Shown: piece by piece, positions 3,378 to 64,000 of the stretch
Position numbering within the stretch: position 1 is the stretch's first letter
How the letters are laid out: each line of letters begins with the position of its first letter
DNA from: Enterobacteria phage P922
Reading direction: 5' to 3' (one strand)
Sequence record: OR999189.1
Length of the DNA: 64,000 bases
Made by a program: the position numbers and the translations under genes
The notes under the pieces: model-generated
The model's input: only the letters and a program-made list of their open reading frames with translations
Told to the model about the DNA's origin: nothing
The model's database searches: none

Positions 3378-3389
3378 GGAAAAATTAAA

Positions 3390-3644
3390 ATGTATCAAGA
3401 ATTTATCGCTGAAGCAGATGCCAAAGGCCCCAAATTTAAAGTTAAAGCTTTCATTGGTGATGCCGAAGATTTTGGCTCATTAAAACGTAATGGGTATTCT
3501 TTCTCAGGCGGCAATGGTAAAGAAATAAACACCTATGCAAAACGTAGTGAAATTGCTTATGTTGTAGTAAGCCCTAAAGTAGATGTTGACGATATTGGAT
3601 ACGATTTTAACAACTTCGGAATTATTTCTGGCGGTAAAGCTTAA
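3390..3644 (+). CDS. internal protein-like small protein
   Basis: Starts MYQEFIAEA, a CTS-like motif lacking the KT dipeptide; 84 aa. Confidence 0.55.
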   Translation: MYQEFIAEADAKGPKFKVKAFIGDAEDFGSLKRNGYSFSGGNGKEINTYAKRSEIAYVVVSPKVDVDDIGYDFNNFGIISGGKA

Positions 3645-3705: not shown

Positions 3706-4281
3706 ATGAAAACGTATAAAGAATTTATCGCTGAAGCTTCTGTGGAAAAGGCCAAAGGCATTAATAAAGATGAGTGGACTTACCGAGGAAATGGTTTTGA
3801 CCCTAAAACAGCCCCTATTGAACGATACTTAGCTACAAAAGCTTCCGACTTTAAAGCTTTCGCTTGGGAAGGACTTCGCTGGTGTACTGATCTAAATATT
3901 GAAGTTGATGGGCTTAAATTTGGCCATATTCAAGATGTTGTTGCTAGTAACTTGGACGCAGCTTTTGTTAAAGCTGACGGTGACCTTCGTCGCTGGAATT
4001 TAAAATTATTCTCTAAACAGAAAGGCCCAGTGTTTGTGCCTAAAGCTGGTAAATGGGTTATTGATAATAAATTAGCTAAGGCTGTCAACTTCGCCGGTCT
4101 TGAATTTGCCAAGCACAAATCGGCATGGAAAGGTCTTGATGCAATGGCTTTCCGTAAAGAATTCGCCGAGGTTATGACTAAAGGCGGCTTTAAGGCAGAA
4201 CTAGATACCTCTAAAGGTACGTTTAAAGACGCTAATGTTCAGTATGCTTACGCCGTTGCTAATGCAGCCCGTGGTAATTAA
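3706..4281 (+). CDS. ipIII: internal protein III-like (IPIII)
   Basis: MKTYKEFIAEASVEKAKGINKDEWTYRGNGFDPKTAPIERYLATKASDFKAFAWEGLRW... resembles T4 IPIII; CTS present. Confidence 0.8.
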   Translation: MKTYKEFIAEASVEKAKGINKDEWTYRGNGFDPKTAPIERYLATKASDFKAFAWEGLRWCTDLNIEVDGLKFGHIQDVVASNLDAAFVKADGDLRRWNLKLFSKQKGPVFVPKAGKWVIDNKLAKAVNFAGLEFAKHKSAWKGLDAMAFRKEFAEVMTKGGFKAELDTSKGTFKDANVQYAYAVANAARGN

Positions 4282-6458: not shown

Positions 6459-6488
6459 GTTTACTTTTCCTCTTGACTGTGGTATAAT
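6459..6488 (+). promoter_or_regulatory. T4-type early promoter upstream of regB
   Basis: GTTTAC 6459-6464, 18 nt spacer, TGGTATAAT with -10 at 6483-6488; AGAGGAG RBS follows. Confidence 0.6.
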
Positions 6489-6515
6489 TTTTCTATCAGT
6501 TAAGAGGAGAATAAC

Positions 6516-10422: not shown

Positions 10423-10446
10423 AGTCTCCTTCGGGAGACTTTTTTC
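10423..10446 (+). terminator. rho-independent terminator
   Basis: AGTCTCC-TTCG-GGAGACT followed by TTTTT. Confidence 0.75.
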
Positions 10447-10455
10447 ATTTTACCG

Positions 10456-10490
10456 GTTTACTTTCCATTTGAGCTGTGATACTATACAAC
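10456..10490 (+). promoter_or_regulatory. early promoter
   Basis: GTTTAC at 10456-10461, -10-like GATACTAT ~18 nt downstream; GAGGAG RBS before ATG 10514. Confidence 0.55.
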
Positions 10491-10513
10491 CATCGGATAA
10501 AGAGGAGAACATC

Positions 10514-11267: not shown

Positions 11268-11297
11268 GTTTACAAGTTGGCAAGGTTATGGTATAGT
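11268..11297 (+). promoter_or_regulatory. early promoter with inverted repeat around -10
   Basis: GTTTAC 11268-11273, 18 nt, TATAGT 11292-11297; imperfect inverted repeat flanks the -10. Confidence 0.55.
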
Positions 11298-11325
11298 AAT
11301 CTTGTCAACTGCTAAGGAGAAGAGA

Positions 11326-13992: not shown

Positions 13993-13994
13993 TA

Positions 13995-14019
13995 GGGAGC
14001 CTTCGGGCTCCCTTTTTTA
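13995..14019 (+). terminator. rho-independent terminator
   Basis: GGGAGCC-TTCG-GGCTCCC then TTTTTT. Confidence 0.8.
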
Positions 14020-14042
14020 TTTCAAAAATTTTTCACAAAATT

Positions 14043-14072
14043 GTTTACAAGCATAAAGCTTTATGGTACTAT
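14043..14072 (+). promoter_or_regulatory. early promoter
   Basis: GTTTAC 14043-14048, 18 nt, TACTAT 14067-14072; shares flanking sequence with promoter at 41870. Confidence 0.55.
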
Positions 14073-14109
14073 ACAACTATCAAAACAAACACTTAAACGG
14101 AAAAACAAA

Positions 14110-14259
14110 ATGAAAATTACACCAATTGAAGTAAAAAAGTTGATTGACACAGAAGAAATTTCAGAGTGTTTTGAAAGTTTCTTAGAAGATGCAACTGAAG
14201 ATAATGCAGTTTATCTCGCTCAGAAAATTATCGAAACTTATTTGGAGAAGAATCAATGA
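14110..14259 (+). CDS. small acidic protein (49 aa)
   Basis: ORF track 14041..14259; ATG 14110 downstream of promoter. Confidence 0.45.
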   Translation: MKITPIEVKKLIDTEEISECFESFLEDATEDNAVYLAQKIIETYLEKNQ

Positions 14260-14519
14260 CAGTTTACGTAGATGTTTTAATGAATCATGGATGGAAACTT
14301 CGCGGTCATCCAACTAAAAATTGTCATATGTTCACTGATGGAGATATTGAAGAGCTTCATGAAATGGCAGAAGCAATAGGAATGAAACGTTCTTGGTTTC
14401 AAGATAAACGCATTAAACATTATGACTTACACGCTCGGCGACGCCAAAAAGCTATAGAACTTGGCGCCGTAGAAGTATCTCGTCGCGAAGCAGTAAAAAT
14501 TTGGCAAACATTAAAATAA
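14256..14519 (+). CDS. conserved small protein (possibly DUF4031-type)
   Basis: MTVYVDVLMNHGWKLRGHPTKNCHMFTDGD...RSWFQ...HYDL pattern; assignment from memory only. Confidence 0.45.
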   Translation: MTVYVDVLMNHGWKLRGHPTKNCHMFTDGDIEELHEMAEAIGMKRSWFQDKRIKHYDLHARRRQKAIELGAVEVSRREAVKIWQTLK

Positions 14520-14522
14520 ATT

Positions 14523-14552
14523 GTTTACAGCAGGGTAGTAGTGTGATACTAT
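14523..14552 (+). promoter_or_regulatory. early promoter with inverted repeat around -10
   Basis: GTTTAC 14523-14528, 18 nt, TACTAT 14547-14552; GGGTAGTA...TACTATTACCC imperfect inverted repeat. Confidence 0.55.
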
Positions 14553-14588
14553 TACCCTATCAAAACAAATGTAAAATTGGAGAATAAA

Positions 14589-15655: not shown

Positions 15656-15961
15656 ATGATGTTATACTCAAAGGCTCGTGAAATTTACGAAACTAAAATT
15701 AAAGAAGCAGTATTTAAGTTCGCAACGACAATGCGATGGACAAATGACTGGGAGTATTCAAAAAATCATAAGAAGCCCATGGTGACAAGAAAGGCTCATA
15801 TGTTAGTGTTAATAGACCGTGAGCAGATTAAAGCCCGAGAAGCCCTCCAGAATCATAAAAAGGCTGCCTTTGAATGGTTTATGGATAACACTGCTCCTGA
15901 GACTAAGAAAGCAGTGAGCGCATGGTTCAGTGGAAAAAATTGTGAAAGAAGTTTCTTTTAG
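15656..15961 (+). CDS. hypothetical protein
   Basis: ORF track 15647..15961; GGAGG RBS favours ATG 15656. Confidence 0.5.
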   Translation: MMLYSKAREIYETKIKEAVFKFATTMRWTNDWEYSKNHKKPMVTRKAHMLVLIDREQIKAREALQNHKKAAFEWFMDNTAPETKKAVSAWFSGKNCERSFF

Positions 15962-15963
15962 TG

Positions 15964-15993
15964 GTTTACAAGACTGTTCCTCTGTGGTACTAT
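15964..15993 (+). promoter_or_regulatory. early promoter
   Basis: GTTTAC 15964-15969, 18 nt, TACTAT 15988-15993. Confidence 0.55.
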
Positions 15994-16021
15994 ACAACTA
16001 TCAACTACGGAGGAACACAAA

Positions 16022-17918: not shown

Positions 17919-18947
17919 ATGAAAACTCGTTCTCAAATTGAAGATATGGTTCGTAATGCCAGTTATACTCGTGATGTTATGACATTTTTGTGTGAAAATA
18001 ATTTAGACCCTGATAAAGTTAATCGTGTTATTCATCACTTTAAGTATACGAATAGCAGTGAATGGGTGCGTAATTTTAGTAAAGCGGGATATATTACACA
18101 AATGACTGCTCGTGAGCAACTCACCGATTTCTGTAAAACTATTGATTATAAAAATCCTTTATTTGTTCAAGGCGTTGGTCAAAGTAAGGTCGATTTATCA
18201 TCTGGATTTTTCAATCCAAATCATTATCGTATTGAATGGAGATTTATTGCTCTGTTCCGTAGACAATTAAAGCAAATTTTATCAACTGCGAGTCGATTAA
18301 AAGGTTCTGATATTAACTTAAAGAACCTGAAATTTGATGGTTATACTCTTCAGATGGAAGTAAGACCATTAAAAGAAAATAATAGAACTGCACGAATTAG
18401 CTTTAAACCTAATACAAAAAATTCTCTTTCAATTTGCGAATGCCTTAAATCGCAGTTGACAGAAGCATTTAAGTATATGGATGTTGTTGCCGCTGTTCAG
18501 TCTAAGATTTTACCTCATTTTGAGCGAAATTGGGAACATACAACAACGTATGAACTTGATATGATCGTTTCATTTAAATACGATTTTTTGAGAAAGGACG
18601 AAGTCACGCAAGAGAAAAAGCAAGAAGTGCAAGATAACTTAAATTTAAATTTATCTAATTACTCATCAAACGATCCTAAATTTTGGATGTATAGTTCAGG
18701 TAATAAGGATGCATGGAAATTCAATAAAGTGAATTTTCTTCCTGTTGAAAATCCGAGTCTTAAACCTGTTGAAAAATGGCATGCAGATGCGATTGAGAAG
18801 TCTATCAAGGCAGTAGATGATGAACTCGTTAAAGCAACTAATGAAGTGCTAGAAGCTGAAAAGATGCTAGAAAAAGCTCAAGAAAAAGTCAAAAATCTTA
18901 CGAAGCAACGTTCTAAACTGAACAATGCACTAAATGCACTAAACTAG
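17919..18947 (+). CDS. coiled-coil-tailed protein, tandem array member 2
   Basis: Starts MKTRSQIEDMVRN; C-terminal VDDELVKATNEVLEAEKMLEKAQEKVKNLTKQRSKLNNALNALN. Confidence 0.55.
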   Translation: MKTRSQIEDMVRNASYTRDVMTFLCENNLDPDKVNRVIHHFKYTNSSEWVRNFSKAGYITQMTAREQLTDFCKTIDYKNPLFVQGVGQSKVDLSSGFFNPNHYRIEWRFIALFRRQLKQILSTASRLKGSDINLKNLKFDGYTLQMEVRPLKENNRTARISFKPNTKNSLSICECLKSQLTEAFKYMDVVAAVQSKILPHFERNWEHTTTYELDMIVSFKYDFLRKDEVTQEKKQEVQDNLNLNLSNYSSNDPKFWMYSSGNKDAWKFNKVNFLPVENPSLKPVEKWHADAIEKSIKAVDDELVKATNEVLEAEKMLEKAQEKVKNLTKQRSKLNNALNALN

Positions 18948-18976
18948 TTTACTTTGCCACAAGGATGTGGTATAAT
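18947..18976 (+). promoter_or_regulatory. early promoter (near-identical copy at 63732)
   Basis: GTTTAC 18947-18952, 18 nt, TGTGGTATAAT with -10 at 18971-18976. Confidence 0.6.
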
Positions 18977-19004
18977 GTTCTTACTTTCTACTGAGGAGAT
19001 TAAT

Positions 19005-22415: not shown

Positions 22416-22538
22416 AACCTTGGTGGGCGGCTAGATGGGAAACAGTAGAGCCAGAGCCGGAAGAACCGGTTTACACTGATGAAGAAACAGTATATAATGA
22501 ACCTACGATAAATGACTTAATTGATATGGAGATGGGAC

Positions 22539-23676: not shown

Positions 23677-25490
23677 CAATTGAAAAAGAAATTGAAGGAT
23701 TGATTCATAAAACTAATAAAGACCTTTTAAACGAGAATGCTAATAAAGATTCTCGTGTTTTTCCAACTCAACGGGACCTTATGGCTGGTATTGTGTCTAA
23801 ACACATTGCCAAAAATATGGTCCCGTCTTTTATTATGAAAGCGCATGAAAGCGGAATTATCCATTTCCACGATATTGATTATTCCCCTGCTCTTCCATTT
23901 ACTAATTGTTGTTTAGTAGATTTAAAAGGAATGCTTGAAAACGGATTTAAGCTCGGCAATGCACAGATTGAAACTCCTAAATCAATCGGCGTTGCTACTG
24001 CAATTATGGCACAAATTACTGCACAGGTTGCTTCCCATCAATACGGTGGAACGACTTTTGCGAATGTAGATAAAATCCTTTCTCCTTATGTTAAACGCAC
24101 CTATGCAAAACATATTGAAGACGCGGAAAAATGGCAAATCACTGATGCGTTGAATTATGCCCAATCTAAAACAGAAAAAGACGTATACGATGCATTCCAA
24201 GCTTATGAATATGAAGTAAATACTCTCTTTAGTTCAAACGGACAAACGCCTTTTGTAACAATTACATTTGGTACGGGAACTGACTGGACTGAACGAATGA
24301 TTCAGAAAGCAATTCTGAAAAATCGTATTAAAGGTCTTGGTCGTGATGGGATAACTCCTATTTTCCCTAAGCTTGTTATGTTCGTTGAAGAAGGTGTTAA
24401 TCTTTATAAAGACGATCCGAACTATGATATTAAGCAGCTTGCTCTAGAGTGTGCAAGCAAAAGAATGTATCCTGACATCATTTCGGCTAAGAACAATAAA
24501 GCTATCACCGGTTCATCTATTCCTGTTTCTCCAATGGGTTGTCGTAGTTTCTTGGGCGTATGGAAAGATTCGACTGGTAATGAAATTCTTGATGGACGTA
24601 ATAATCTTGGTGTTGTAACACTAAATCTTCCTCGTATTGCGTTAGATTCTTATATTGGAACACAGTTCAATGAACAGAAATTTGCCGAATTGTTCAATGA
24701 ACGAATGGATTTATGTTTTGAAGCATTGATGTGTAGAATTAGTTCCTTAAAAGGAGTTAAAGCTACTGTTGCTCCTATTCTTTACCAAGAAGGCGCATTC
24801 GGGGTTCGTCTTAAACCTGATGACGATATAATTGAGTTATTTAAAAACGGTAGAAGTTCAGTGTCCTTAGGATACATTGGTATTCACGAATTGAATATTC
24901 TTGTCGGTCGTGATATTGGACAAGAAATTTTAACTAAAATGAATGCTCATCTTAAGCAGTGGACTGAAAGAACCGGTTTTGCTTTTAGTTTGTATTCTAC
25001 ACCTGCTGAAAACCTGTGCTATCGCTTCTGTAAACTTGATACCGAAAAATATGGAAGTGTAAAGGATGTTACTGATAAAGGCTGGTACACTAACAGTTTC
25101 CACGTTTCAGTAGAAGAAAATATTACTCCGTTTGAAAAGATTTCTCGCGAAGCCCCATATCATTTCATTGCGACAGGTGGTCACATTTCTTATGTTGAAC
25201 TTCCTGATATGAAAAATAACCTAAAGGGTCTTGAGGCTGTATGGGATTATGCTGCACAACATTTAGATTATTTTGGTGTTAATATGCCAGTAGATAAATG
25301 TTTTACATGTGGAAGTACCCATGAAATGACTCCTACTGAAAACGGATTTGTTTGTTCTATTTGTGGAGAAACTGATCCTAAAAAGATGAACACAATAAGA
25401 AGAACTTGTGGTTATTTGGGAAATCCGAATGAACGCGGATTTAATCTCGGCAAAAATAAAGAAATCATGCATAGGGTTAAACACCAATGA
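23673..25490 (+). CDS. nrdD: anaerobic ribonucleotide reductase NrdD
   Basis: 605 aa; C-terminal Zn ribbon CFTCGS...CSICG and glycyl radical region RRTCGYLG; uninterrupted. Confidence 0.95.
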   Translation: MTIEKEIEGLIHKTNKDLLNENANKDSRVFPTQRDLMAGIVSKHIAKNMVPSFIMKAHESGIIHFHDIDYSPALPFTNCCLVDLKGMLENGFKLGNAQIETPKSIGVATAIMAQITAQVASHQYGGTTFANVDKILSPYVKRTYAKHIEDAEKWQITDALNYAQSKTEKDVYDAFQAYEYEVNTLFSSNGQTPFVTITFGTGTDWTERMIQKAILKNRIKGLGRDGITPIFPKLVMFVEEGVNLYKDDPNYDIKQLALECASKRMYPDIISAKNNKAITGSSIPVSPMGCRSFLGVWKDSTGNEILDGRNNLGVVTLNLPRIALDSYIGTQFNEQKFAELFNERMDLCFEALMCRISSLKGVKATVAPILYQEGAFGVRLKPDDDIIELFKNGRSSVSLGYIGIHELNILVGRDIGQEILTKMNAHLKQWTERTGFAFSLYSTPAENLCYRFCKLDTEKYGSVKDVTDKGWYTNSFHVSVEENITPFEKISREAPYHFIATGGHISYVELPDMKNNLKGLEAVWDYAAQHLDYFGVNMPVDKCFTCGSTHEMTPTENGFVCSICGETDPKKMNTIRRTCGYLGNPNERGFNLGKNKEIMHRVKHQ

Positions 25491-27235: not shown

Positions 27236-27521
27236 AACGTATCGTCGTAAAGATTTAAAAGTACGTGATTATGACTATTTCGGAAAGCGTAAAGCTCCTG
27301 ATGGTGTAAGTCATAAAGATATGGTTGAAAACATTTTTCGCTCTGATAAATGGCGTAGAATGAAAGGAATTGATTCAGAAGTTAAAGATGAGTTAAATCG
27401 TCAATTACGTAGTGAAGTAAGAAAGTTGAAAAAATCAGTTTACATTGATGACGATTTTGATTATAATACTTCTCAACGAGTTGCTAAGCGTAAATCAAAC
27501 GAGTGCTATCGTTACAGCTGA
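27228..27521 (+). CDS. hypothetical basic protein
   Basis: ORF track 27183..27521; ATG 27228 with AAGGAAAT RBS. Confidence 0.5.
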   Translation: MGKTYRRKDLKVRDYDYFGKRKAPDGVSHKDMVENIFRSDKWRRMKGIDSEVKDELNRQLRSEVRKLKKSVYIDDDFDYNTSQRVAKRKSNECYRYS

Positions 27522-27660: not shown

Positions 27661-27861
27661 ATGAATCCTGAATCTAAATTATCACAACGAATTGCCGAAG
27701 CTCGTCGTCAGTTCTTTGAAAATATGATAGCCCAAGGTATTGATGACGAAGTTTTTCTGAACTGGTTTTGGAATCACAAATATTCAAAATGCGCAGGAGC
27801 AATATTAATATCAGCTGCAATGATGTACGAAGGCTGGAAGGGTGCCAAACGGTTTAGCTAA
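27661..27861 (+). CDS. hypothetical small protein
   Basis: ORF track. Confidence 0.45.
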   Translation: MNPESKLSQRIAEARRQFFENMIAQGIDDEVFLNWFWNHKYSKCAGAILISAAMMYEGWKGAKRFS

Positions 27862-27878
27862 GGGCTTCGGCCCTTTTT
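27862..27878 (+). terminator. rho-independent terminator
   Basis: GGGC-TTCG-GCCC followed by TTTTT. Confidence 0.7.
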
Positions 27879-30297: not shown

Positions 30298-31500
30298 ATG
30301 AAAGTATGTATTTTTATGGCTCGAGGTCTTGAAGGTTGTGGTGTAACTAAATTTTCTCTTGAGCAGCGTGATTGGTTTATTAAAAATGGTCATGAAGTAA
30401 CTTTGGTTTATGCTAAAGATAAATCATTTACTCGTAATTGCGCGCATGATTATAAGTCATTTTCAATTCCGGTTTTATTGGCAAAAGAATACGATAAAAC
30501 GCTTAAGCTGGTAAATGATTGTGATATTCTAGTTATCAATTCAGTTCCTGCTACTTCAGTCGAAGAAGACACAATTAATAACTATAAAAAAATTATTGAT
30601 AACATTAAACCTTCGGTTCGTGTTGTAGTTTATCAGCATGACCATTCTTCTCTTTCTTTGCGTCGAAATTTGGGATTAGAAGAAACTGTTCGTCGAGCTG
30701 ATGTTATTTTTAGCCATTCTGATAATGGTGACTTTAATAAAGTTTTGATGAAAGAATGGTATCCGGAAACTGTTTCTTTGTTTGATGATATTGAAGAAGC
30801 ACCGACCGTATATAACTTTCAGCCTCCTATGGATATTGCGAAGGTTCGATCAACCTACTGGAAAGATGTTTCTGAAATTAACATGAATATCAACCGTTGG
30901 ATTGGTCGTACTACTACATGGAAAGGCTTTTATCAGATGTTTGATTTTCATGAAAAACATCTTAAACCTGCAGGACTAAGTACTATTATGGAAGGTCTGG
31001 AACGTTCTCCAGCATTTATTCCTATTAAAGAAAAAGGAATTCCATACGAGTATTATCGTCTTCATCAAGTAGACCAAATTAAAATTGCTCCTAATTTGCC
31101 AACGCAAATTCTCGACCGTTATGTAAATAGCGAAATGCTTGAACGCATGAGTAAATCCGGATTTGGTTATCAGCTGAGTAAATTAGATAAAAAATATCTA
31201 CAGCGTTCTTTAGAATATACTCATCTCGAGCTTGGTGCATGCGGAACAATTCCAGTATTTTGGAAATCTACTGGCGAAAATTTAAAATTCCGTGTTGATA
31301 ATACTCCGTTAATTTCTCATGATAGCGGTATCGTTTGGTTTGATGAAAATGACATGGAATCAACATTTGAACGTATTAAAGAACTGTCATCTGACCGAGC
31401 TCTTTATGACCGTGAGCGAGAAAAAGCGTATGAATTTTTGTATCAACATCAAGATTCAAGCTTCTGCTTTAAAGAACAGTTTGACATTATTACAAAATAA
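30298..31500 (+). CDS. agt: DNA alpha-glucosyltransferase
   Basis: 400 aa, MKVCIFMARGLEGCGVTKFSLEQRDWFIKNGHEVTLVYAKDKSF... matches T4 alpha-GT as I recall it. Confidence 0.93.
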   Translation: MKVCIFMARGLEGCGVTKFSLEQRDWFIKNGHEVTLVYAKDKSFTRNCAHDYKSFSIPVLLAKEYDKTLKLVNDCDILVINSVPATSVEEDTINNYKKIIDNIKPSVRVVVYQHDHSSLSLRRNLGLEETVRRADVIFSHSDNGDFNKVLMKEWYPETVSLFDDIEEAPTVYNFQPPMDIAKVRSTYWKDVSEINMNINRWIGRTTTWKGFYQMFDFHEKHLKPAGLSTIMEGLERSPAFIPIKEKGIPYEYYRLHQVDQIKIAPNLPTQILDRYVNSEMLERMSKSGFGYQLSKLDKKYLQRSLEYTHLELGACGTIPVFWKSTGENLKFRVDNTPLISHDSGIVWFDENDMESTFERIKELSSDRALYDREREKAYEFLYQHQDSSFCFKEQFDIITK

Positions 31501-31501
31501 A

Positions 31502-31516
31502 GGGCTTCGGCCCTTT
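31502..31516 (+). terminator. rho-independent terminator
   Basis: GGGC-TTCG-GCCC then TTT. Confidence 0.65.
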
Positions 31517-31539
31517 AGCTTTATACGGAGTTTGATATA

Positions 31540-31680
31540 ATGATATTTCTTGGATATGTGATACTTTTTCTTGCATTTTATCTATTCACTAGAGCATGTT
31601 GGATTGGATTCTTTAGCACTCCAGATGGATTTATTTCAATAATTTTATTTTGCATTTCAATGACGGTTCTTGATATATGA
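31540..31680 (+). CDS. 46-aa hydrophobic peptide
   Basis: MIFLGYVILFLAFYLFTRACWIGFFSTPDGFISIILFCISMTVLDI; ATGA overlap with following GIY-YIG gene. Confidence 0.35.
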   Translation: MIFLGYVILFLAFYLFTRACWIGFFSTPDGFISIILFCISMTVLDI

Positions 31681-32300
31681 AAAAATATATAACTTATTTA
31701 ACAATATATAGTGGAGATAAACTTCCTCCTTTTTATATTGGATCTACATCTTTAGACAGGCATTTAGCCGGATATCATGGATCAGTTTTATCTAAAAAGT
31801 ATAAGAAAATTTATAATGAAGAACTTTCAAATAACCCACATTTATTTGATTCATGCATTTTAGATGAATTTGATACGCGCGAAGAAGCTATTAAATGCGA
31901 GCTATATTATCAACGTTTGCATGATGCGGTTAAAAATCCATTGTTCTTTAATATGTCATATGCTGCTCCAAAAGGTTCATTTGGAAGAGATATTAAAGGA
32001 CAAAATCATCCATTATATGGTTCTCATAATTGTAAAGGAAACATACATTCACATGACCCATTAACAGGAAAATCTGCCTTTTTACCATATATTCCAGAAG
32101 GTTATGTAAAAGGAAGGTCAAATAAATTTAAAGCTTCATCACATAATAAAGGTAAAAAATGGTATAATAATGGAGTTAAGCAAATGTTATGTCATGAACC
32201 TCCTGGTCCTGAATGGACAAAAGGAAAAATTAAAGAACTAGTTTCAAAAGCAGCTAAATTAGGATGGAAAAGATACCATGAAAATATTAAACTTGGGTGA
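31677..32300 (+). CDS. GIY-YIG homing endonuclease (Seg-like, free-standing)
   Basis: ITYLTIYSGDKLPPFYIGSTS...R...E...N GIY-YIG pattern; Lys/Gly-rich C-terminal region. Confidence 0.7.
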   Translation: MKKYITYLTIYSGDKLPPFYIGSTSLDRHLAGYHGSVLSKKYKKIYNEELSNNPHLFDSCILDEFDTREEAIKCELYYQRLHDAVKNPLFFNMSYAAPKGSFGRDIKGQNHPLYGSHNCKGNIHSHDPLTGKSAFLPYIPEGYVKGRSNKFKASSHNKGKKWYNNGVKQMLCHEPPGPEWTKGKIKELVSKAAKLGWKRYHENIKLG

Positions 32301-36121: not shown

Positions 36122-36808
36122 ATGAAACTGTCTAAAGATACTACTGCTCTGCTTAAAAATTTCGCTACTATTAACTCTGGTATTATGCTTAAATCCGGTC
36201 AATTTATTATGACTCGCGCGGTTAATGGTACAACTTATGCGGAAGCAAATATTTCTGACACTATTGATTTTGATGTAGCAATTTACGATTTGAACGGTTT
36301 TCTCGGTATTCTGTCTCTAGTTAATGATGATGCAGAAATTTCCCAGTCAGAAGATGGTAATATTAAAATTGCTGATGCTCGTTCAACAATTTTTTGGCCA
36401 GCAGCCGATCCGAGTACAGTAGTTGCTCCTAATAAACCAATTCCATTCCCGGTAGCATCTGTTGTTACTGAAATTAAAGCTGAAGACCTTCAACAGCTGT
36501 TGCGTGTATCTCGTGGTCTGCAGATTGATACAATTGCTATCACAGTAAAAGAAGGTAAAATCGTAATTAACGGTTTTAATAAAGTAGAAGATTCTGCTTT
36601 GACCCGTGTTAAATATTCTTTGACTCTTGGTGATTATGATGGCGAAAATACATTTAATTTCATTATCAATATGGCAAATATGAAAATGCAACCAGGAAAT
36701 TATAAACTTCTGCTCTGGGCAAAAGGTAAACAAGGTGCTGCTAAATTTGAAGGTGAACACGCGAATTATGTAGTAGCTCTTGAAGCTGATTCTACCCACG
36801 ACTTTTAA
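36122..36808 (+). CDS. 45: sliding clamp gp45
   Basis: 228 aa, MKLSKDTTALLKNFATINSGIMLKSGQFIMTRAVNGTTYAEANISD... matches T4 gp45. Confidence 0.96.
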   Translation: MKLSKDTTALLKNFATINSGIMLKSGQFIMTRAVNGTTYAEANISDTIDFDVAIYDLNGFLGILSLVNDDAEISQSEDGNIKIADARSTIFWPAADPSTVVAPNKPIPFPVASVVTEIKAEDLQQLLRVSRGLQIDTIAITVKEGKIVINGFNKVEDSALTRVKYSLTLGDYDGENTFNFIINMANMKMQPGNYKLLLWAKGKQGAAKFEGEHANYVVALEADSTHDF

Positions 36809-36812
36809 TAAA

Positions 36813-36827
36813 GGGCTTCGGCCCTTT
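36813..36827 (+). terminator. rho-independent terminator
   Basis: GGGC-TTCG-GCCC then TTT. Confidence 0.65.
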
Positions 36828-36859
36828 ATAATTTACACTAAAACTTGAATGAGGAAATT

Positions 36860-38385: not shown

Positions 38386-38754
38386 ATGATTGAAATTACT
38401 CTTAAAAAACCTGAAGATTTTCTGAAAGTTAAAGAAACCTTGACTCGCATGGGAATTGCTAATAATAAAGATAAAGTTCTGTATCAATCCTGTCATATTC
38501 TCCAGAAAAAAGGACTATACTATATCGTCCATTTTAAAGAAATGCTTCGTATGGATGGTCGCCAGGTTGAAATGACAGAAGAAGATGAAGTTCGTCGTGA
38601 TTCGATTGCATGGCTGTTAGAAGATTGGGGACTGATTGAAATCGTTCCTGGTCAAAGAACTTTTATGAAAGATTTAACCAATAACTTCCGAGTTATTTCT
38701 TTTAAACAAAAACATGAATGGAAACTCGTTCCAAAATATACGATTGGTAATTAA
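38386..38754 (+). CDS. regA: translational repressor RegA
   Basis: 122 aa, MIEITLKKPEDFLKVKETLTRMGIANNKDKVLYQSCHILQKKGLYYIVHFKEM... Confidence 0.9.
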   Translation: MIEITLKKPEDFLKVKETLTRMGIANNKDKVLYQSCHILQKKGLYYIVHFKEMLRMDGRQVEMTEEDEVRRDSIAWLLEDWGLIEIVPGQRTFMKDLTNNFRVISFKQKHEWKLVPKYTIGN

Positions 38755-38755
38755 T

Positions 38756-38977
38756 ATGACTGCTATAACCCCACAAGAATACATGGCGTCTCTTAAAGAA
38801 AAATATAATCTTTCTGCAACAGAAACACTTTTTGATTTACCAGAAAATCTCCAACTAAAATTTCAGGTAGAATTTCAAAAATTAGTTCACCCAGAACAAA
38901 AACACTTTACCGCAGTGGTTAAGTCAATTAATGCAGATGGATTGACAATTTTTCACCGACAAATGGTATTAATTTAA
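38756..38977 (+). CDS. hypothetical small protein
   Basis: ORF track 38714..38977; ATG 38756 overlaps regA stop. Confidence 0.45.
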   Translation: MTAITPQEYMASLKEKYNLSATETLFDLPENLQLKFQVEFQKLVHPEQKHFTAVVKSINADGLTIFHRQMVLI

Positions 38978-38981
38978 GCAA

Positions 38982-39000
38982 GGGGCTTCGGCCCCTTATT
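38982..39000 (+). terminator. rho-independent terminator
   Basis: GGGGC-TTCG-GCCCC then TTATTT. Confidence 0.7.
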
Positions 39001-41752: not shown

Positions 41753-41765
41753 TAGAATAAATCTA

Positions 41766-41787
41766 GGGACCTCCGGGTCCCTTTTTC
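41766..41787 (+). terminator. rho-independent terminator
   Basis: GGGACC-TCCG-GGTCCC then TTTTT. Confidence 0.8.
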
Positions 41788-41869
41788 ATACAAGTAATAT
41801 AAATCTATACTTAGGAAAAATAGATGATTCTGGACCTCTGGAATTCATTAAAAAATTTTTCACAAAACT

Positions 41870-41899
41870 GTTTACATCCCGGTTCCTTTGTGGTACTAT
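41870..41899 (+). promoter_or_regulatory. early promoter
   Basis: GTTTAC 41870-41875, 18 nt, TACTAT 41894-41899; flanks shared with promoter at 14043. Confidence 0.55.
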
Positions 41900-41933
41900 A
41901 CAACTATCAACTGATGCGGATTTGGAGAATGAA

Positions 41934-45911: not shown

Positions 45912-47339
45912 GTGGTAGAAATTATTCTTTCTCATCTCATATTTGATCAAGCTTATTTTTCAAAAGTTTGGCCATATATGGATTCAGAATATTTTGAAAG
46001 TGGTCCAGCTAAAAATACATTCAAATTAATTAAATCTCATGTCAATGAGTACCATAGCGTTCCATCTATTAATGCGTTAAATGTTGCATTAGAAAATAGT
46101 TCATTTACTGAAACAGAATATTCTGGTGTAAAAACACTTATTTCGAAACTAACCGATTCTCCGGAAGACCATAGCTGGTTAGTAAAAGAAACAGAAAAAT
46201 ATGTTCAGCAAAGGGCGATGTTTAACGCCACATCTAAAATAATTGAAATTCAAACTAATGCTGAGCTTCCTCCGGAAAAACGAAATAAGAAAATGCCAGA
46301 TGTAGGTGCTATTCCTGACATCATGCGTCAAGCATTATCAATTTCATTTGATAGCTACGTTGGTCATGATTGGATGGATGACTACGAAGCACGTTGGCTA
46401 TCTTATATGAATAAAGCTCGTAAGGTTCCATTTAAACTCAAAATTCTAAATAAAATTACTAAAGGTGGAGCTGAGACTGGAACACTGAACGTTTTAATGG
46501 CTGGTGTTAACGTTGGTAAGTCATTAGGTCTGTGTTCATTGGCAGCAGATTATTTACAGCTCGGTCATAATGTTCTTTACATTTCAATGGAAATGGCAGA
46601 AGAAGTCTGTGCTAAGCGTATTGATGCTAATATGCTTGATGTTTCTCTTGATGACATTGATGATGGGCATATTTCTTACGCTGAGTATAAAGGAAAAATG
46701 GAAAAATGGCGTGAGAAATCTACTCTCGGTCGTTTAATCGTTAAACAGTATCCTACTGGTGGAGCAGACGCTAATACATTTCGATCGCTTTTAAACGAAT
46801 TAAAGCTCAAGAAGAATTTTGTTCCAACAATCATTATTGTTGACTATCTAGGTATTTGTAAATCTTGCCGCATCAGAGTTTATTCAGAAAATAGTTACAC
46901 AACTGTTAAAGCTATCGCAGAGGAATTGCGTGCTCTGGCTGTTGAAACCGAAACTGTTCTTTGGACTGCAGCGCAGGTTGGTAAGCAAGCTTGGGATTCT
47001 TCTGATGTTAACATGAGCGATATTGCAGAATCTGCCGGTCTTCCAGCAACAGCCGATTTTATGCTTGCGGTCATTGAAACCGAGGAGTTAGCAGCGGCTG
47101 AACAACAACTCATTAAGCAAATCAAATCACGATATGGTGATAAGAATAAATGGAATAAGTTTTTGATGGGTGTTCAAAAAGGAAATCAGAAATGGGTAGA
47201 AATTGAACAAGATTCTACTCCAACTGAAGTGAACGAAGTAGCAGGTTCACAGCAGATTCAGGCTGAACAGAACCGCTATCAAAGAAATGAATCGGCTCGA
47301 GCTCAGTTAGATGCTTTAGCAAACGAATTAAAATTTTAG
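45912..47339 (+). CDS. 41: replicative DNA helicase gp41 (DnaB-like)
   Basis: 475 aa, GTG start, MVEIILSHLIFDQAYFSKVW...; Walker A GVNVGKS. Confidence 0.96.
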   Translation: MVEIILSHLIFDQAYFSKVWPYMDSEYFESGPAKNTFKLIKSHVNEYHSVPSINALNVALENSSFTETEYSGVKTLISKLTDSPEDHSWLVKETEKYVQQRAMFNATSKIIEIQTNAELPPEKRNKKMPDVGAIPDIMRQALSISFDSYVGHDWMDDYEARWLSYMNKARKVPFKLKILNKITKGGAETGTLNVLMAGVNVGKSLGLCSLAADYLQLGHNVLYISMEMAEEVCAKRIDANMLDVSLDDIDDGHISYAEYKGKMEKWREKSTLGRLIVKQYPTGGADANTFRSLLNELKLKKNFVPTIIIVDYLGICKSCRIRVYSENSYTTVKAIAEELRALAVETETVLWTAAQVGKQAWDSSDVNMSDIAESAGLPATADFMLAVIETEELAAAEQQLIKQIKSRYGDKNKWNKFLMGVQKGNQKWVEIEQDSTPTEVNEVAGSQQIQAEQNRYQRNESARAQLDALANELKF

Positions 47340-47368
47340 TTTACAAGCTGACAAGACTATGGTATAGT
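47339..47368 (+). promoter_or_regulatory. early promoter with inverted repeat around -10
   Basis: GTTTAC 47339-47344, 18 nt, TATAGT 47363-47368; CAAGACT...AGTCTTG flanks the -10. Confidence 0.55.
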
Positions 47369-47397
47369 AGTCTTGTTGGTTAAATGAGGAGATTGTT

Positions 47398-47581: not shown

Positions 47582-47824
47582 ATGCACATTGTTTTATTTA
47601 AACCTACTCCGTATAATGTCAGGAAAAATACTCAATTCAAAGCACTTGTTGCAGATACGTGGGAATTGGTGTTAGATATTCCAGCAGAAGAAAGTCCTCC
47701 ATTTGGTCGAGTGGAATTTATTAAGTTTGCTGTGCGCCCTACGAAGCGACAGATTCGCCAATGCAAAAGATACTTTCGTAAAATCGTCAAGTTAGAGAAA
47801 CAGTTATTGATGCTAGTAAAATAG
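47582..47824 (+). CDS. hypothetical small basic protein
   Basis: ORF track 47540..47824; ATG 47582 with GAGGATAAT RBS. Confidence 0.5.
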   Translation: MHIVLFKPTPYNVRKNTQFKALVADTWELVLDIPAEESPPFGRVEFIKFAVRPTKRQIRQCKRYFRKIVKLEKQLLMLVK

Positions 47825-47826
47825 TA

Positions 47827-47856
47827 GTTTACAAGCTGATAGAGTTGTGTTATAGT
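47827..47856 (+). promoter_or_regulatory. early promoter with inverted repeat around -10
   Basis: GTTTAC 47827-47832, 18 nt, TATAGT 47851-47856; CTGATAG...CTATCAG inverted repeat. Confidence 0.55.
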
Positions 47857-47887
47857 AATTCTATCAGCTAATCGCGGAGAAAAGAAA

Positions 47888-48142
47888 ATGATGCTAGTTA
47901 ATAGAGAATATCAGTTTAAATCAGAAGAACATTTGGAAAAATTCGCAAGTGGTTGTGAACTGAATAGACGCACAGCTAAAGTCATAGGATTAAAACCCTT
48001 TACAGTTCTAGATTGTGAAGTTTCTAAATTCCGCAGAGGGTGTTCTATTAGCGGTCATGCTCTGGTTGATGGGAACACATTTTTCTTTGTTTTTAGCGTC
48101 AGAGAACTTTTATTGATTAACGAACTTGAGGAAATAAAATAG
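47888..48142 (+). CDS. hypothetical small protein on its own promoter cassette
   Basis: ORF track; GGAGAAAAG RBS. Confidence 0.5.
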   Translation: MMLVNREYQFKSEEHLEKFASGCELNRRTAKVIGLKPFTVLDCEVSKFRRGCSISGHALVDGNTFFFVFSVRELLLINELEEIK

Positions 48143-48200
48143 TTTACTTTTGTTGGAAATTGAGATACTATTATAAACATAAACTACTGAGGAGATTATC

Positions 48201-49121: not shown

Positions 49122-49286
49122 ATGAAAACATATAAAGAATTTATCAAAGAAGATATGGTCGCTGGAGATTCAGGTGGTAATCCTGAAAATATCTCTATTG
49201 GAACAACGTCAGGTGCTGTAGTAAATAAAGGTCCTGAACAGATTCCTAAAAAGAAAAAAGAGGAATCTAAAGAAAAAGAAGAGTAA
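49122..49286 (+). CDS. 54-aa protein with internal-protein-like capsid targeting sequence
   Basis: MKTYKEFIKEDMVAGDSGGNPENISIGTT...KKKKEESKEKEE; below track cut-off; AGAGG RBS. Confidence 0.45.
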   Translation: MKTYKEFIKEDMVAGDSGGNPENISIGTTSGAVVNKGPEQIPKKKKEESKEKEE

Positions 49287-50585: not shown

Positions 50586-51104
50586 ATGGCTTACTTTAAT
50601 GAATGTTCGCAACTGATCGAAGGCGCTGATAAAGCTCAAAATGAATACTGGGATATTCTCGGTGACGAAAAAGACCCACTGCAAGTTATGCTTGATATGC
50701 AGAAATCTTTGCAGGTTCGTTTAGCTAAAGATAAACCTGAATATAACCGTCATCCTGATGATTTGGCTACTGCAGGTGAAGTTGTTGATTGGCTGCGTAA
50801 TCAGAAAGATTATATTGACGATGAATTCCGTGAACTTCTGACTTCTCTTGGTGGTATGAGCAATGGTGAAAAAGATGCATCTGCTGTATGGAAGCCTTGG
50901 AAGTCGCAGCATGGTGAACGTCGTGAAACTCTGATTACTGATTTGTCTCCACAAGACCAGTTGGAAATTAAATTCGAAATGATTGATATTCTTCATTTCG
51001 TTCTGAACATGTTCCAAGGTCTCGGCCTTACTGCTGAAGAAATCTTTAAACTTTATTATCTGAAGAATGCTGAAAACTTCGCTCGTCAAGACCGAGGTTA
51101 TTAA
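50586..51104 (+). CDS. 56: dCTPase/dUTPase gp56
   Basis: 172 aa beginning MAYFNECSQLIEG; ATG 50586 within track ORF 50493..51104. Confidence 0.9.
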   Translation: MAYFNECSQLIEGADKAQNEYWDILGDEKDPLQVMLDMQKSLQVRLAKDKPEYNRHPDDLATAGEVVDWLRNQKDYIDDEFRELLTSLGGMSNGEKDASAVWKPWKSQHGERRETLITDLSPQDQLEIKFEMIDILHFVLNMFQGLGLTAEEIFKLYYLKNAENFARQDRGY

Positions 51105-51431: not shown

Positions 51432-51456
51432 GGACTCCTTCGGGAGTCCTTTTTTC
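51432..51456 (+). terminator. rho-independent terminator
   Basis: GGACTCC-TTCG-GGAGTCC then TTTTTT. Confidence 0.8.
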
Positions 51457-51465
51457 ATTTTACTG

Positions 51466-51495
51466 GTTTACTTTCCAAAATGAGTATGGTATAAT
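51466..51495 (+). promoter_or_regulatory. early promoter
   Basis: GTTTAC 51466-51471, TGGTATAAT 51487-51495; terminator-promoter arrangement resembles 10423-10490. Confidence 0.55.
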
Positions 51496-51521
51496 AAAAT
51501 TATCTTATAGAGGAGAGCACT

Positions 51522-58537: not shown

Positions 58538-58567
58538 GTTTACTTCCTCGGTTAGTTGTGGTATTAT
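58538..58567 (+). promoter_or_regulatory. early promoter
   Basis: GTTTAC 58538-58543, 18 nt, TATTAT 58562-58567. Confidence 0.5.
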
Positions 58568-58594
58568 AACACCATAGCTACTGAGGATAATAAA

Positions 58595-59642: not shown

Positions 59643-59672
59643 GTTTACAAACTCTTGGGACCAGAGTATAAT
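59643..59672 (+). promoter_or_regulatory. early promoter with inverted repeat around -10
   Basis: GTTTAC 59643-59648, 18 nt, TATAAT 59667-59672; GGACCA...TGGTCC flanks the -10. Confidence 0.55.
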
Positions 59673-59716
59673 GGTCCTGTGGAGTATAAAATCTTTTTAA
59701 CAAGTGAGAGATAACT

Positions 59717-60243: not shown

Positions 60244-60286
60244 ATCAGTAGTTGATTATGGTACTATATCAATATCAACTACTGAT
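60244..60286 (+). repeat. perfect 13-bp inverted repeat enclosing a -10-like TGGTACTAT element
   Basis: ATCAGTAGTTGAT at 60244-60256 and its reverse complement ATCAACTACTGAT at 60274-60286. Confidence 0.7.
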
Positions 60287-61845: not shown

Positions 61846-61846
61846 A

Positions 61847-61863
61847 AGGCCTTCGGGCCTTTA
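61847..61863 (+). terminator. rho-independent terminator
   Basis: AGGCC-TTCG-GGCCT then TTT. Confidence 0.65.
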
Positions 61864-63990: not shown

Positions 63991-64000
63991 TGAGGAAATT

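Follow-up and report, generated by a model that had tools for sequence, protein, structure and literature searches.

Why do the early promoters of one phage genome resemble each other so closely that two of them, 44.8 kb apart, differ at a single position in 32? The question is raised by positions 18945-18976 of the 64,000-nucleotide stretch of Enterobacteria phage P922 DNA analysed here (OR999189.1; hereafter the window), which recur at 63730-63761. An earlier sequence-only reading had assigned such repeats to the promoter-early-stem-loop (PeSL) cassettes of T4-type phages, acting as recombination substrates. We consider it very probable that they are sigma-70 early promoters in PeSL cassettes that form related sub-families, carry selected hairpins and occasionally act as recombination patches.

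An early-promoter class on one strand

The window corresponds to the early genes of a Tequatrovirus (reversed T4 positions ~67.5 kb to 2.2 kb), with 92-100% identity to EcNP1, Nami and T4, and represents a new mosaic of known Tequatrovirus sequence with two promoter-flanked accessory blocks absent in T4. The motif GTTTAC-N18-TAnnnT had 22 matches against 0.78 expected, all on the + strand, and 17 of the 21 promoter sites analysed coincided with features annotated as 'predicted early promoter' by the authors of fPS-65, our reference for promoter annotation, confirming the repeated early promoters of the sequence-only reading. The T4 records AF158101 and NC_000866 hold no promoter features in this region. 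The promoters are orthologous to T4 promoters of rIIA.1, nrdC.4, regB, dmd, motB, modB, srd and others, and most of those outside the near-identical pair also align to T4 with few changes; this orthology and the consensus indicate that they are probably active. They share the -35 GTTTAC, the TGn, the -10 and, at several promoters, the A-rich upstream tract of T4 early promoters (Hinton 2010, PMC2988021; Nolan et al. 2006, PMC1524935), from which they do not differ in kind.

Compared with six relatives, the -35 and -10 had diverged by 0.2% and 0.5%, respectively, the spacer by 5.2% and the flanks by 8-9%. A Shine-Dalgarno (SD) sequence and ATG lie 25-45 nt past the -10 in 20 of 21 promoters; P60238 has a longer leader (~110 nt). 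The A+T content from -25 to -1 ranged from 0.60 to 0.88 per promoter, compared with ~0.65 for the whole window, with clear enrichment at P6459, P14043, P14523, P41870 and P60238; at the near-identical pair it was 0.60 and 0.68, and coding sequence reaches the -35 there. Thirteen of the 21 promoters adjoin the stop codon of the upstream gene.

These repeats are strong sigma-70 early promoters and belong to a type of promoter-plus-hairpin cassette already in the literature, the PeSL cassettes of the Krisch laboratory (PMC2839356, PMC4122927). Comeau et al. 2014 (PMC4122927) covers T4 and PST, with the T-even PeSL promoter form TTTACW-N17-TAYWAT, and Arbiol et al. 2010 (PMC2839356) place the commonest stem-loops between the -35 and -10 or overlapping the -10. 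The class also admits stem-loops that overlap the -35, sit in the A/T tract or follow shortly behind the -10, and its described traits extend to termination or attenuation of upstream transcription by the stem-loop and to mini-circles made when neighbouring cassettes recombine. The PeSL identity proposed earlier was correct: the window promoters have the T-even promoter form, an SD, a start codon and, mostly, a stem-loop between the -35 and -10 or over the -10. Further likenesses to these cassettes are the order of parts (stop codon of the preceding gene, at some promoters an A/T tract, the sigma-70-type promoter, stem-loop, then SD and ATG), G-T pairs in the stems, and some ORFs that lie between two cassettes and are gained or lost among close relatives, the breakpoints falling past the -10 and before the SD. 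Unlike those cassettes, only three of the 21 window promoters (P10456, P14043 and P51466) have an adjacent classical upstream terminator, a G+C-rich hairpin with a T-run.

A cassette would begin in some cases with a terminator hairpin and continue with an A/T-rich stretch, the -35 GTTTAC, an 18-nt spacer, the TGn and -10, a short 5'UTR, and a GGAG-type SD with the start codon. The likeness among cassettes can be ascribed to a very tight promoter consensus, read by host RNA polymerase immediately after infection; to sub-families from a common cassette, pieces of which, as mosaic patterns suggest, would have been copied or swapped among junctions by homologous recombination in the course of evolution; and to purifying selection, evident from covariation, on an RNA hairpin across the promoter with a presumptive function.

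The near-identical pair and the promoter sub-families

18945-18976, + strand: nrdC.4 early promoter; G variant of the 32-mer; TGG-TATAAT; 'predicted early promoter' in fPS-65
63730-63761, + strand: rIIA.1 early promoter; A variant of the 32-mer; promoter feature in fPS-65

The single mismatch reported between these sites was reproduced (31/32 identity), and no third window site lay within three mismatches of the 32-mer, nor did 100 shuffles yield one. Column shuffles of the 21 aligned promoters, which keep the consensus, never reached 31/32 (0/2000; null maximum 29), and the spacer of the pair alone matched at 17 of 18 positions where the shuffles gave at most 16, so that consensus alone is insufficient for the pair. 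A TAG stop codon overlaps the -35 of each copy, that of nrdC.5 at the G of GTTTAC in 18945-18976 and that of the gene 39 topoisomerase in 63730-63761. Between the -35 and -10, the nrdC.4 promoter spacer contains a 7-bp hairpin, UGCCACA[AGGA]UGUGGUA, in which the rIIA.1 copy has A-U where the nrdC.4 copy has G.U.

We rejected a recent duplication or conversion in the window genome as the origin of the pair, because T4 holds both copies, A/G difference included (2429-2460 and ~50,940-50,971). The 32-mer occurs in 741 phage records, usually at two places per record, and its distinguishing A or G is retained by each copy in every sampled Tequatrovirus genome; the spacer had 0 changes in 198 orthologous positions, compared with 5.2% for spacers overall. 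A 26-nt core, GTTTACTTTRCCACAAGGATGTGGTA, is identical at five different gene junctions in Tequatrovirus and Jiaodavirus, the Jiaodavirus copies lying at junctions other than the Tequatrovirus ones, and equals in length the longest exact match anywhere between the two genomes compared from these genera. Junctions orthologous to 26-mer sites carry different promoters, and one Jiaodavirus genome has nearly identical ~68-nt cassettes at non-orthologous junctions. Together, these comparisons indicate that the pair is one old, exceptionally conserved promoter allele before rIIA.1 and nrdC.4. A crossover between copies 44.8 kb apart would entail loss of essential genes, replication genes included. 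This one promoter core is perfectly conserved across genera at non-orthologous sites; its identity exceeds the needs of hairpin and promoter, and it may have an unrecognised sequence-specific function.

Other likenesses among the promoters extend over longer flanks or include a terminator.

13994-14089, + strand: P14043 terminator-promoter cassette; GTTTAC...TACTAT; left edge of a 480-nt accessory cassette
15945-16021, + strand: P15964 early promoter (nrdC.8); spacer GTTCCTCTGTGG pairs with the SD region CTACGGAGGAAC
41851-41933, + strand: P41870 early promoter (imm.1); in a sub-family with P14043, P15964 and P60238
60219-60286, + strand: P60238 promoter (cef); degenerate -35 ATATAC
10423-10513, + strand: P10456 terminator-promoter unit (mobD.5); AGTCTCC-TTCG-GGAGACT, T-run, GTTTACTTTCCA...TACTAT
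51432-51521, + strand: P51466 terminator-promoter unit (mrh.2); GGACTCC-TTCG-GGAGTCC, T-run, GTTTACTTTCCA...TATAAT

The shared flanks described at 14043 and 41870 held up, with 14024-14083 and 41851-41910 identical at 50 of 60 positions; at 90 nt this was the best pair of the promoter set (60/90, reached by 0.05% of shuffles). A partial copy at 15964 was likewise borne out (15945-16004 is 72% identical to 14024-14083). The P14043 terminator, AGGGAGCC-TTCG-GGCTCCCT with a T-run, is followed by the A/T tract AAAAATTTTTCACAAAA, and the 5'UTR of this promoter ends in CTATCAAAACAAA. The spacer of P41870 differs at 8 of 18 bases between window/Nami and T4/HEMP5/fPS-65 with the flanks kept, and relatives have a 233-239-nt ORF inserted at the SD/ATG behind it. 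The -10 of P60238 is enclosed by a perfect 13-bp inverted repeat, ATCAGTAGTTGAT...ATCAACTACTGAT, and HEMP5 carries a 200-nt insertion 44-51 nt downstream of this promoter. The units at 10423 and 51432, the latter downstream of soc where fPS-65 annotates an adjacent terminator and promoter, had been called near-duplicates and are indeed alike over ~46 nt and ~74% overall: their stems match at 14 of 18 positions, with the four differences forming two compensatory pairs, the stretch from the T-run through GTTTACTTTCCA matches at 27 of 28, and the remaining spacer and -10 at only ~10 of 23.

Hairpins across the promoters

2907-2963, + strand: P2907 early promoter (denV); spacer TTCCTCCAAG exactly complementary to the SD region CTTGGAGGAA
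3648-3705, + strand: P3648 early promoter (ipIII); CTATCAAAACAAA in the 5'UTR
6459-6515, + strand: P6459 early promoter (regB); spacer pairs with the SD region
11268-11325, + strand: P11268 early promoter (mobD.2); third member of the 15-bp hairpin family
14523-14569, + strand: P14523 early promoter (nrdC.10); hairpin over the -10; repeated 13-mer CTATCAAAACAAA
26993-27052, + strand: P26993 early promoter (55.6); no significant hairpin
47339-47397, + strand: P47339 early promoter (dmd); 15-bp hairpin at 47346-47381, loop contains the start of the -10
47827-47887, + strand: P47827 early promoter; 15-bp hairpin paralogous to that of P47339; precedes an accessory 84-aa ORF
48142-48200, + strand: P48142 early promoter (sp); right edge of a 315-nt cassette; TAAAATAGT-GTTTAC common to P47827
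53577-53632, + strand: P53577 early promoter (modB); hairpin spans the -10 through the SD and start codon
54912-54970, + strand: P54912 early promoter (srd); no hairpin
58538-58594, + strand: P58538 early promoter (motB.2); spacer TTCCTCGGTTAG pairs with the SD region CTACTGAGGA
59643-59716, + strand: P59643 early promoter (motB); -10 in the loop of GGGACCA/TGGTCCT

Twelve of the 21 promoter 66-mers folded at ≤ -14 kcal/mol, compared with 10.3% of 1500 random 66-mers, and these strong hairpins hold the -10 in the loop; Z-scores of promoter hairpins ranged from -2.7 to -6.2, and eight promoters had no significant hairpin. The inverted repeats said to contain a -10 are real at ~47351-47376, 47835-47868, 59658-59677 and 60244-60286, although the coordinates first given for the second were a few bases off. 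In the hairpin family of P11268, P47339 and P47827 with their orthologues, all 165 of 165 cells were paired, against 21-66% in slid controls; 6 of 15 pairs had changed on both sides, sense-strand G.U occurred in 11 of 11 sequences at one pair and in 3-5 of 11 at five others, and variation followed the path from G.U to A-U to G-C. Pairing of the regB (P6459) spacer with the SD was kept through compensatory changes, with different sequences, in three lineages; this covariation was read from individual folds, the MAFFT alignment having left the helices of the three lineages out of structural register. The P14523 orthologue in Karamvirus PG7 also has a hairpin over the -10, with a different sequence. 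By this covariation the stem-loops are structures under selection in the sense-strand RNA, with a putative function. Maintenance of the regB helix by compensatory change shows selection for the pairing itself.

In such a hairpin the spacer supplies the 5' arm and the 5'UTR the 3' arm, and the loop encloses the -10. Because the 5' arm precedes the site where the promoter starts its own transcript, the hairpin can arise only in read-through RNA that began at a promoter farther upstream. In such RNA it is expected to attenuate read-through, as Arbiol et al. 2010 (PMC2839356) measured for one RB49 cassette; most promoter-spanning stems lack a U-run, making terminator action uncertain. In five of 20 promoters, P2907 (denV), P6459 (regB), P15964, P53577 and P58538, the 5' arm is upstream of the internal start and the 3' arm includes the SD or AUG, and the predicted SD-unpaired probability is ≤0.02 in read-through RNA versus 0.52-0.93 in the transcript from the gene's own promoter. 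These five hairpins would hide the SD, such that the gene would be translated mainly from its own promoter's transcript. The inclusion of the SD in five window stem-loops sets them apart from PeSL cassettes, for which a translational reading is not put forward in the available text of the PeSL papers. As a class, SD sequestration did not differ significantly from non-promoter genes with a pseudo start site (p = 0.09, 0.11), and with 5 of 20 promoters involved we rejected it as a general early-promoter property.

Hairpins that hide a ribosome-binding site and hold an internal promoter occur in the T4 genes e, soc, 49 and I-TevI (Uzan and Miller 2010, PMC3014915). As there, the 5' arm of the five window hairpins is upstream of the internal start and the SD-hiding fold is predicted only in read-through RNA; the internal promoters of those T4 genes are late and delay expression, whereas those of the window are early and the predicted effect is insulation, not temporal delay. 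In the literature searched, hairpins spanning T4 early promoters were described only in the PeSL papers, and we found no experimental test of an early-promoter version of such hairpins. Occlusion of the ribosome-binding site in some genes, regB included, may point to an insulation role. Tentatively, the promoter-spanning hairpins could be a general insulation device of T4-type early regions, with the frozen GTTTACTTTRCCACAAGGATGTGGTA as a sequence-specific element copied to at least five junctions in two genera. If so, only transcripts started at a gene's own promoter would have an open leader; in RNA arriving from upstream it would be folded, with the SD hidden or the RNA attenuated, and each promoter-gene unit would be functionally autonomous wherever it lands.

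Gene gain and loss, and alternative explanations

14090-14522, + strand: accessory two-ORF block (ORFs 14110-14259 and 14256-14519); named DUF4031 in RefSeq records
about 47888-48142, + strand: accessory 84-aa ORF between P47827 and P48142

Indels were surveyed in six relatives, one of which, KNP5, was alignable only up to 41.9 kb of the window, so that its events come from that part only; the null comprised all gene junctions of a gene model from which five spurious short ORFs had been removed by hand. Seven of 37 indels touched a promoter junction, and across the six relatives promoter junctions were not enriched (8/21 versus 35/107 other junctions; Fisher p = 0.40). Mapping the breakpoints of relatives, the check suggested with the sequence-only reading, largely went against it: ends fell at gene junctions generally. 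Nor did the cassettes bracket most accessory ORFs, as had been claimed: of 22 blocks of the window that one or more of the six relatives lack or have replaced, 17 had no promoter at either end (two had one at both ends and three at one end). Among 15 insertions in relatives, two were at promoter junctions. The proposal of recombination substrates survives for two clean cassettes that run from promoter to promoter and for about five events with a promoter on one side, but not as an enrichment of indel ends.

The clean cassettes span 14083-14577 and 47805-48143, with exact repeats of 13 nt and 9 nt, respectively, at the paired promoters. The 14090-14522 block, between P14043 on the left and P14523 on the right, is absent from T4, KNP5, HEMP5 and BCH953P2 and present in 154 phage records; the 84-aa ORF is absent from T4, HEMP5 and fPS-65 and present in 70. 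In these cases the cassettes would have provided the homology by which the intervening ORFs came or went. Elsewhere in the window, genes were mostly gained or lost at ordinary junctions with only 5-9 nt of microhomology, or through events involving homing-endonuclease genes and an intron. Cassettes are occasional homology patches, not the main route of gene-content change in the window. From pairwise genome comparisons, the PeSL papers (PMC2839356, PMC4122927) proposed that the cassettes drive much of the shuffling of genes in T4-type phages; the lack of enrichment of indel ends implies a weaker recombination role here, and the result mainly sharpens the published idea, with real cassettes and two textbook modules bounded by promoters on both sides.

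Convergent selection for the strongest sigma-70 promoter, with no role in recombination or mobility, could in principle produce the likeness by consensus only. An almost invariant -35 and -10 would fit, as would promoter junctions that are no likelier indel sites than others and a pair whose copies keep their own A or G in all sampled Tequatrovirus, with no sign of ongoing conversion. We nevertheless find it unlikely, given that no shuffle reached the identity of the pair or its spacer, that identical 26-mers and the ~68-nt Jiaodavirus cassettes sit at non-orthologous junctions, that the P41870 spacer was replaced between close relatives within kept flanks, and that two accessory blocks lie exactly between paired promoters with repeat-bounded junctions. 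Action of the inverted repeats in DNA, as cruciforms or single-strand hairpins that are targets of recombination or endonuclease VII, or as an aid to -10 melting, seems very unlikely. Such action would suit the position of the -10, in the loop in most cases, and Arbiol et al. 2010 (PMC2839356) speculate that the stem-loop may be a recombinase target and map one mini-circle crossover to the loop; however, many conserved pairs are sense-strand G.U, which would be mismatched in a DNA stem and give C.A on the opposite strand, their variation through A-U to G-C fits the expectation for RNA, and hairpin promoters are not preferred indel boundaries.

The 26-mer could act through its sequence, either bound by some phage or host factor or as an element of the RNA, and so mark a specially regulated promoter subclass; this is possible but doubtful. 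It would explain the freezing of the spacer across two genera, and is in keeping with 100% identity of the core in ~137 Klebsiella phage records, with its presence at five junctions, with tolerance of only G.U to A-U in the 7-bp stem, and with the contrast to other hairpin promoters, which vary by compensation where this one varies not at all. Yet no candidate factor is known and none is mentioned in the reviews searched, the genes behind the 26-mer promoter (rIIA.1, nrdC.4, an imm.1-like gene and a cef-like gene) have no obvious common function, and recent spread could also give identity, though fixed positions within each genus oppose that. We favour sigma-70 early promoters in PeSL cassettes with related sub-families and selected hairpins.

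The most rearranged segment of the window, 2.6-4.3 kb, is the internal-protein locus, as in the shuffling of the T-even internal-protein locus (Repoila et al. 1994, as cited in PMC4122927). Its boundaries are P2907, which forms the right boundary of an indel at 2622-2906, P3648, and a repeated coding sequence for an MKTY..EF leader. The repeated homology at this locus takes in the promoter and also the 5' coding leader.

Early promoters and their repeats

The window spans the early-gene region of a T4-type phage of the genus Tequatrovirus, in reversed orientation relative to the standard T4 map, with position 1 near T4 nudE/e (about 67.5 kb), position 64000 at T4 2190, just upstream of rIIA, and nearly all genes on the + strand. 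No record in the phage collection was identical over the whole window; EcNP1 and Nami were 100% identical to it at 17–21 kb and 96–98% identical elsewhere, a profile that reads as the usual mosaic pattern. All 22 matches to the motif GTTTAC-N18-TAnnnT are on the + strand; 0.78 would be expected over both strands. An SD and a start codon lie downstream of 20 of the 22 sites and of one site with a degenerate -35 (60238); promoters are named here by window position, as in P60238.

Early promoters (+ strand) upstream of genes with T4 orthologues: denV, ipIII, regB, mobD.5, mobD.2, nrdC.10, nrdC.8, nrdC.4, 55.6, imm.1, dmd, sp, mrh.2, modB, srd, motB.2, motB, cef, rIIA.1
Early promoters (+ strand) leading accessory blocks: two

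T-even early promoters have a GTTTAC -35, a TGn and an A-rich upstream tract (PMC2988021; PMC1524935). Relative to T4, Nami, KNP5, HEMP5, BCH953P2 and fPS-65, the -35 diverged by 0.2% and the -10 by 0.5%, compared with 5.2% for the spacer and 8–9% for the flanks. T4 orthology and this low -35 and -10 divergence argue that the sites are T-even early promoters of the sigma-70 type; 17 of the 21 coincide with 'predicted early promoter' features annotated by the depositors of Yersinia phage fPS-65. The two other consensus sites (22469–22498 and 27438–27467) are perfect GTTTAC-N18-TATAAT matches within ORFs, without TGn or a downstream SD/ATG, and could represent internal promoters or have arisen by chance. 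Many early 5'UTRs carry (ATCA)ACTAC(T/G)GAGGAG directly 5' of the start codon (15990–16015, 48170–48195, 18977–19000 and 58568–58590); the spacer of P60238 complements this leader motif exactly. RegB is known to cleave at GGAG.

The repeats that the sequence-only reading described among these promoters are real and beyond chance. The 32-mer at 18945–18976 (nrdC.4 promoter) matches 63730–63761 (rIIA.1 promoter) with a single mismatch, as claimed, and no further site within three mismatches was found in the window or in 100 shuffles. Because a tight consensus is common to both copies, a fair null must keep it; when the columns of the 21 aligned promoters were shuffled 2,000 times, the best pair reached at most 29/32 (31/32 observed), or at most 16/18 over the spacer only (17/18 observed in this pair). 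Identity ends sharply at both edges of the 32-mer: its upstream edge is the TAG that terminates the preceding gene, its downstream edge TATAAT. The proposed shared flanks of P14043 and P41870 (14024–14083 versus 41851–41910, 83% identity over 60 nt) and partial third copy (15945–16004, 72% identical to 14024–14083) were also recovered, and the inverted repeats around -10 elements lie where that reading put them, give or take a few bases. The terminator–promoter units at 10423 and 51432, described as near-duplicates, agree at 14/18 stem positions and over 27/28 of the T-run through GTTTACTTTCCA and diverge beyond; the four stem differences make up two compensatory pairs.

Stem-loops spanning the promoters

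The RNA segment spanning -35 to start codon was folded for 21 promoters, with hairpins of -14 kcal/mol or lower scored as strong. Strong hairpins were present in 12 of the 21, compared with 10.3% of 1,500 random + strand 66-mers, and promoter hairpin z-scores ranged from -2.7 to -6.2. The predicted layout is consistent: spacer and 5'UTR supply the 5' and 3' arms, respectively, and the loop contains the -10. RNA initiated at the promoter itself is predicted to be unstructured. Among the P11268, P47339 and P47827 paralogues and their orthologues, a 15-bp helix is paired in 165/165 cells with two-sided changes at six pairs, and sliding the partner by 1–3 columns lowered pairing to 21–66%. At one pair, the P11268 orthologues show G.U, A-U and G-C. 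The regB spacer–SD helix is built from different sequences in three lineages (CCTCTTGACTG/CAGTTAAGAGG, TCTCCTCTAGTTG/CAACTAGAGGAGA and TCTCCTGTAAGT/ACTTACAGGAGA), and the P14523 orthologue of Karamvirus PG7 has a stem over the -10 whose sequence differs from the window's. Such covariation argues that hairpin pairing is under selection, and the abundance of G.U pairs points to stem-loops acting as sense-strand RNA rather than as DNA structure.

At five promoters (denV, regB, nrdC.8, modB and motB.2), the SD lies within the 3' arm, and its predicted probability of being unpaired rises from at most 0.02 in read-through RNA to 0.52–0.93 in the promoter's own transcript. Across the class as a whole, SD hiding did not differ significantly from that in other genes assigned a pseudo start site (p = 0.09 and 0.11). 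This subset would work like the hairpins of T4 e, soc, 49 and I-TevI, although those enclose late promoters (PMC3014915) and the window's enclose early ones. We found no description of an early-promoter version in the reviews examined. These covariation-supported RNA hairpins, with predicted RBS occlusion in read-through RNA at five early genes, are a candidate for follow-up.

The sequence-only reading had assigned the repeats to the promoter-early-stem-loop (PeSL) cassettes of T4-type phages, rightly: the combination seen here is the published layout. As described in Arbiol 2010 (PMC2839356), a PeSL consists of a stop codon, then an A/T tract, a sigma-70 promoter and the SD and ATG, together with a stem-loop. 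The stem-loop, most often located between the two promoter boxes or over the -10, can contain G-T pairs and is interpreted there as a terminator or attenuator. Comeau 2014 (PMC4122927) carries the PeSL concept over to T4/PST, where the promoter reads TTTACW-N17-TAYWAT. Members of the class had already been reported from this same group of phages.

Age and movement of promoter sequences

In all, 741 phage records contain the 32-mer, usually in two copies, and every Tequatrovirus context sampled has A in the rIIA.1 copy and G in the nrdC.4 copy. The pair is no sign of recent exchange, as T4 has the same pair with the same A/G difference (TAGTTTACTTTACCACAAGGATGTGGTATAAT upstream of rIIA.1, the G variant upstream of nrdC.4). 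The spacer shows 0 changes in 198 orthologous positions, versus 5.2% for spacers overall, and the sole variable base sits in a 7-bp stem, UGCCACA[AGGA]UGUGGUA, where G.U alternates with A-U. The pair is an ancestral promoter allele. A crossover between the copies would delete the intervening 44.8 kb, including genes 43, 41 and uvsX, so the pair cannot serve viable modular shuffling.

Klebsiella phages of the genus Jiaodavirus, whose DNA polymerase has 75% protein identity to the window's, carry a 26-nt core, GTTTACTTTRCCACAAGGATGTGGTA, with 100% identity. Its positions in those phages are downstream of gene 43 and in the interval from motB to a cef-like gene, with a third site in one genome; the window counterparts of these junctions carry other promoters, P41870 and P60238. 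In Jiaodavirus Roth16 (24060–24100), the rIIA.1-like gene, preceded in Tequatrovirus by the early 32-mer, follows TGCTTAAAG-N-TATAAT, which looks like a MotA-type (MotA-box) middle promoter. The 26-mer ties the longest exact match between the window and 26.5 kb of Jiaodavirus phage; all but one of the other long matches lie in orthologous coding genes. About 68 nt, a whole cassette, is common to two Jiaodavirus copies. Within Tequatrovirus, the P41870 spacer differs at 8/18 bases between window/Nami and T4/HEMP5/fPS-65 with its flanks kept; in T4 it is similar to the P15964 spacer of the window. Together, the cross-genus core, the 68-nt cassettes and this spacer change indicate that parts of promoters have moved between junctions by copying or exchange. 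The core, frozen in two genera at non-orthologous junctions, may merit follow-up.

The exceptional long match is a 23-nt intrinsic terminator, AGGGACCTCCGGGTCCCTTTTTC, at window 41765–41787 (after gene 43) and Roth16 23986–24008 (after the topoisomerase region); its identity at non-orthologous sites suggests that the sharing of whole units between genera extends from promoters to terminators. Within the window, a near-identical terminator hairpin family, (A/G)GGGCTTCGGCCC(C/T) with a UUCG loop, has five copies, and the TTCG loop recurs in stems at 10423, 13994 and 51432.

27852–27878, terminator hairpin
31492–31518, terminator hairpin
36803–36829, terminator hairpin
38973–38999, terminator hairpin
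61838–61864, terminator hairpin

Gene-content breakpoints

Alignment of the window to the six relatives, with matches chained, gave 37 distinct insertions, deletions or replacements of at least 30 nt. Two are clean cassettes, and five have one end at a promoter or its leader.

14083–14577, clean cassette: 480-nt unit, two ORFs, between P14043 and P14523
47805–48143, clean cassette: 315-nt unit, 84-aa ORF, between P47827 and P48142
One-sided: two events with ends at P2907 and P3648
One-sided: one event starting at P47827
One-sided, inserted in relatives: one event at the SD/ATG that follows P41870, one in the leader of P60238

The first cassette has the 13-mer CTATCAAAACAAA in both bounding 5'UTRs, is missing in four relatives and is about 90% identical in Karamvirus phages at the same junction; the second has TAAAATAGT-GTTTAC ahead of both bounding promoters. 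Both blocks are polymorphic, present in 154 and 70 phage records, respectively, compared with 502–614 for neighbouring conserved stretches.

Cassettes can mediate exchange, as the sequence-only reading proposed in calling them recombination substrates, but indels were not enriched at promoter junctions (8/21 versus 35/107 others; odds ratio 1.27; Fisher p = 0.40), and event density in these alignments was alike in the promoter-poor 21–39 kb and elsewhere. The breakpoints of relatives thus fall largely off these repeats, an outcome that reading had named as speaking against it: 30 of the 37 events lie away from promoter junctions, among them the nrdD intron, seg and mob homing-endonuclease genes, and whole-ORF indels with only 5–9 nt of microhomology around stop/start overlaps. 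Its further claim that cassettes bracket most accessory ORFs fails, and cassettes coincide with gene-content boundaries in a minority of events, without statistical enrichment. Two whole ORFs, 31677–32300 (207 aa) and 38714–38977 (87 aa), are missing from most relatives and have only 6–7 nt of microhomology, without a promoter, at their boundaries.

Several small genes begin with a 5' coding repeat, ATGAAAACATATAAAGAATTTATC (protein MKTY.EF...; 2624, 3384–3415, 3706–3737 and 49122–49153), which we take to resemble the leader of T4 internal proteins. Three copies lie in the 2.6–4.3 kb locus, the most rearranged part of the window, and the fourth starts a 54-aa ORF at 49122.
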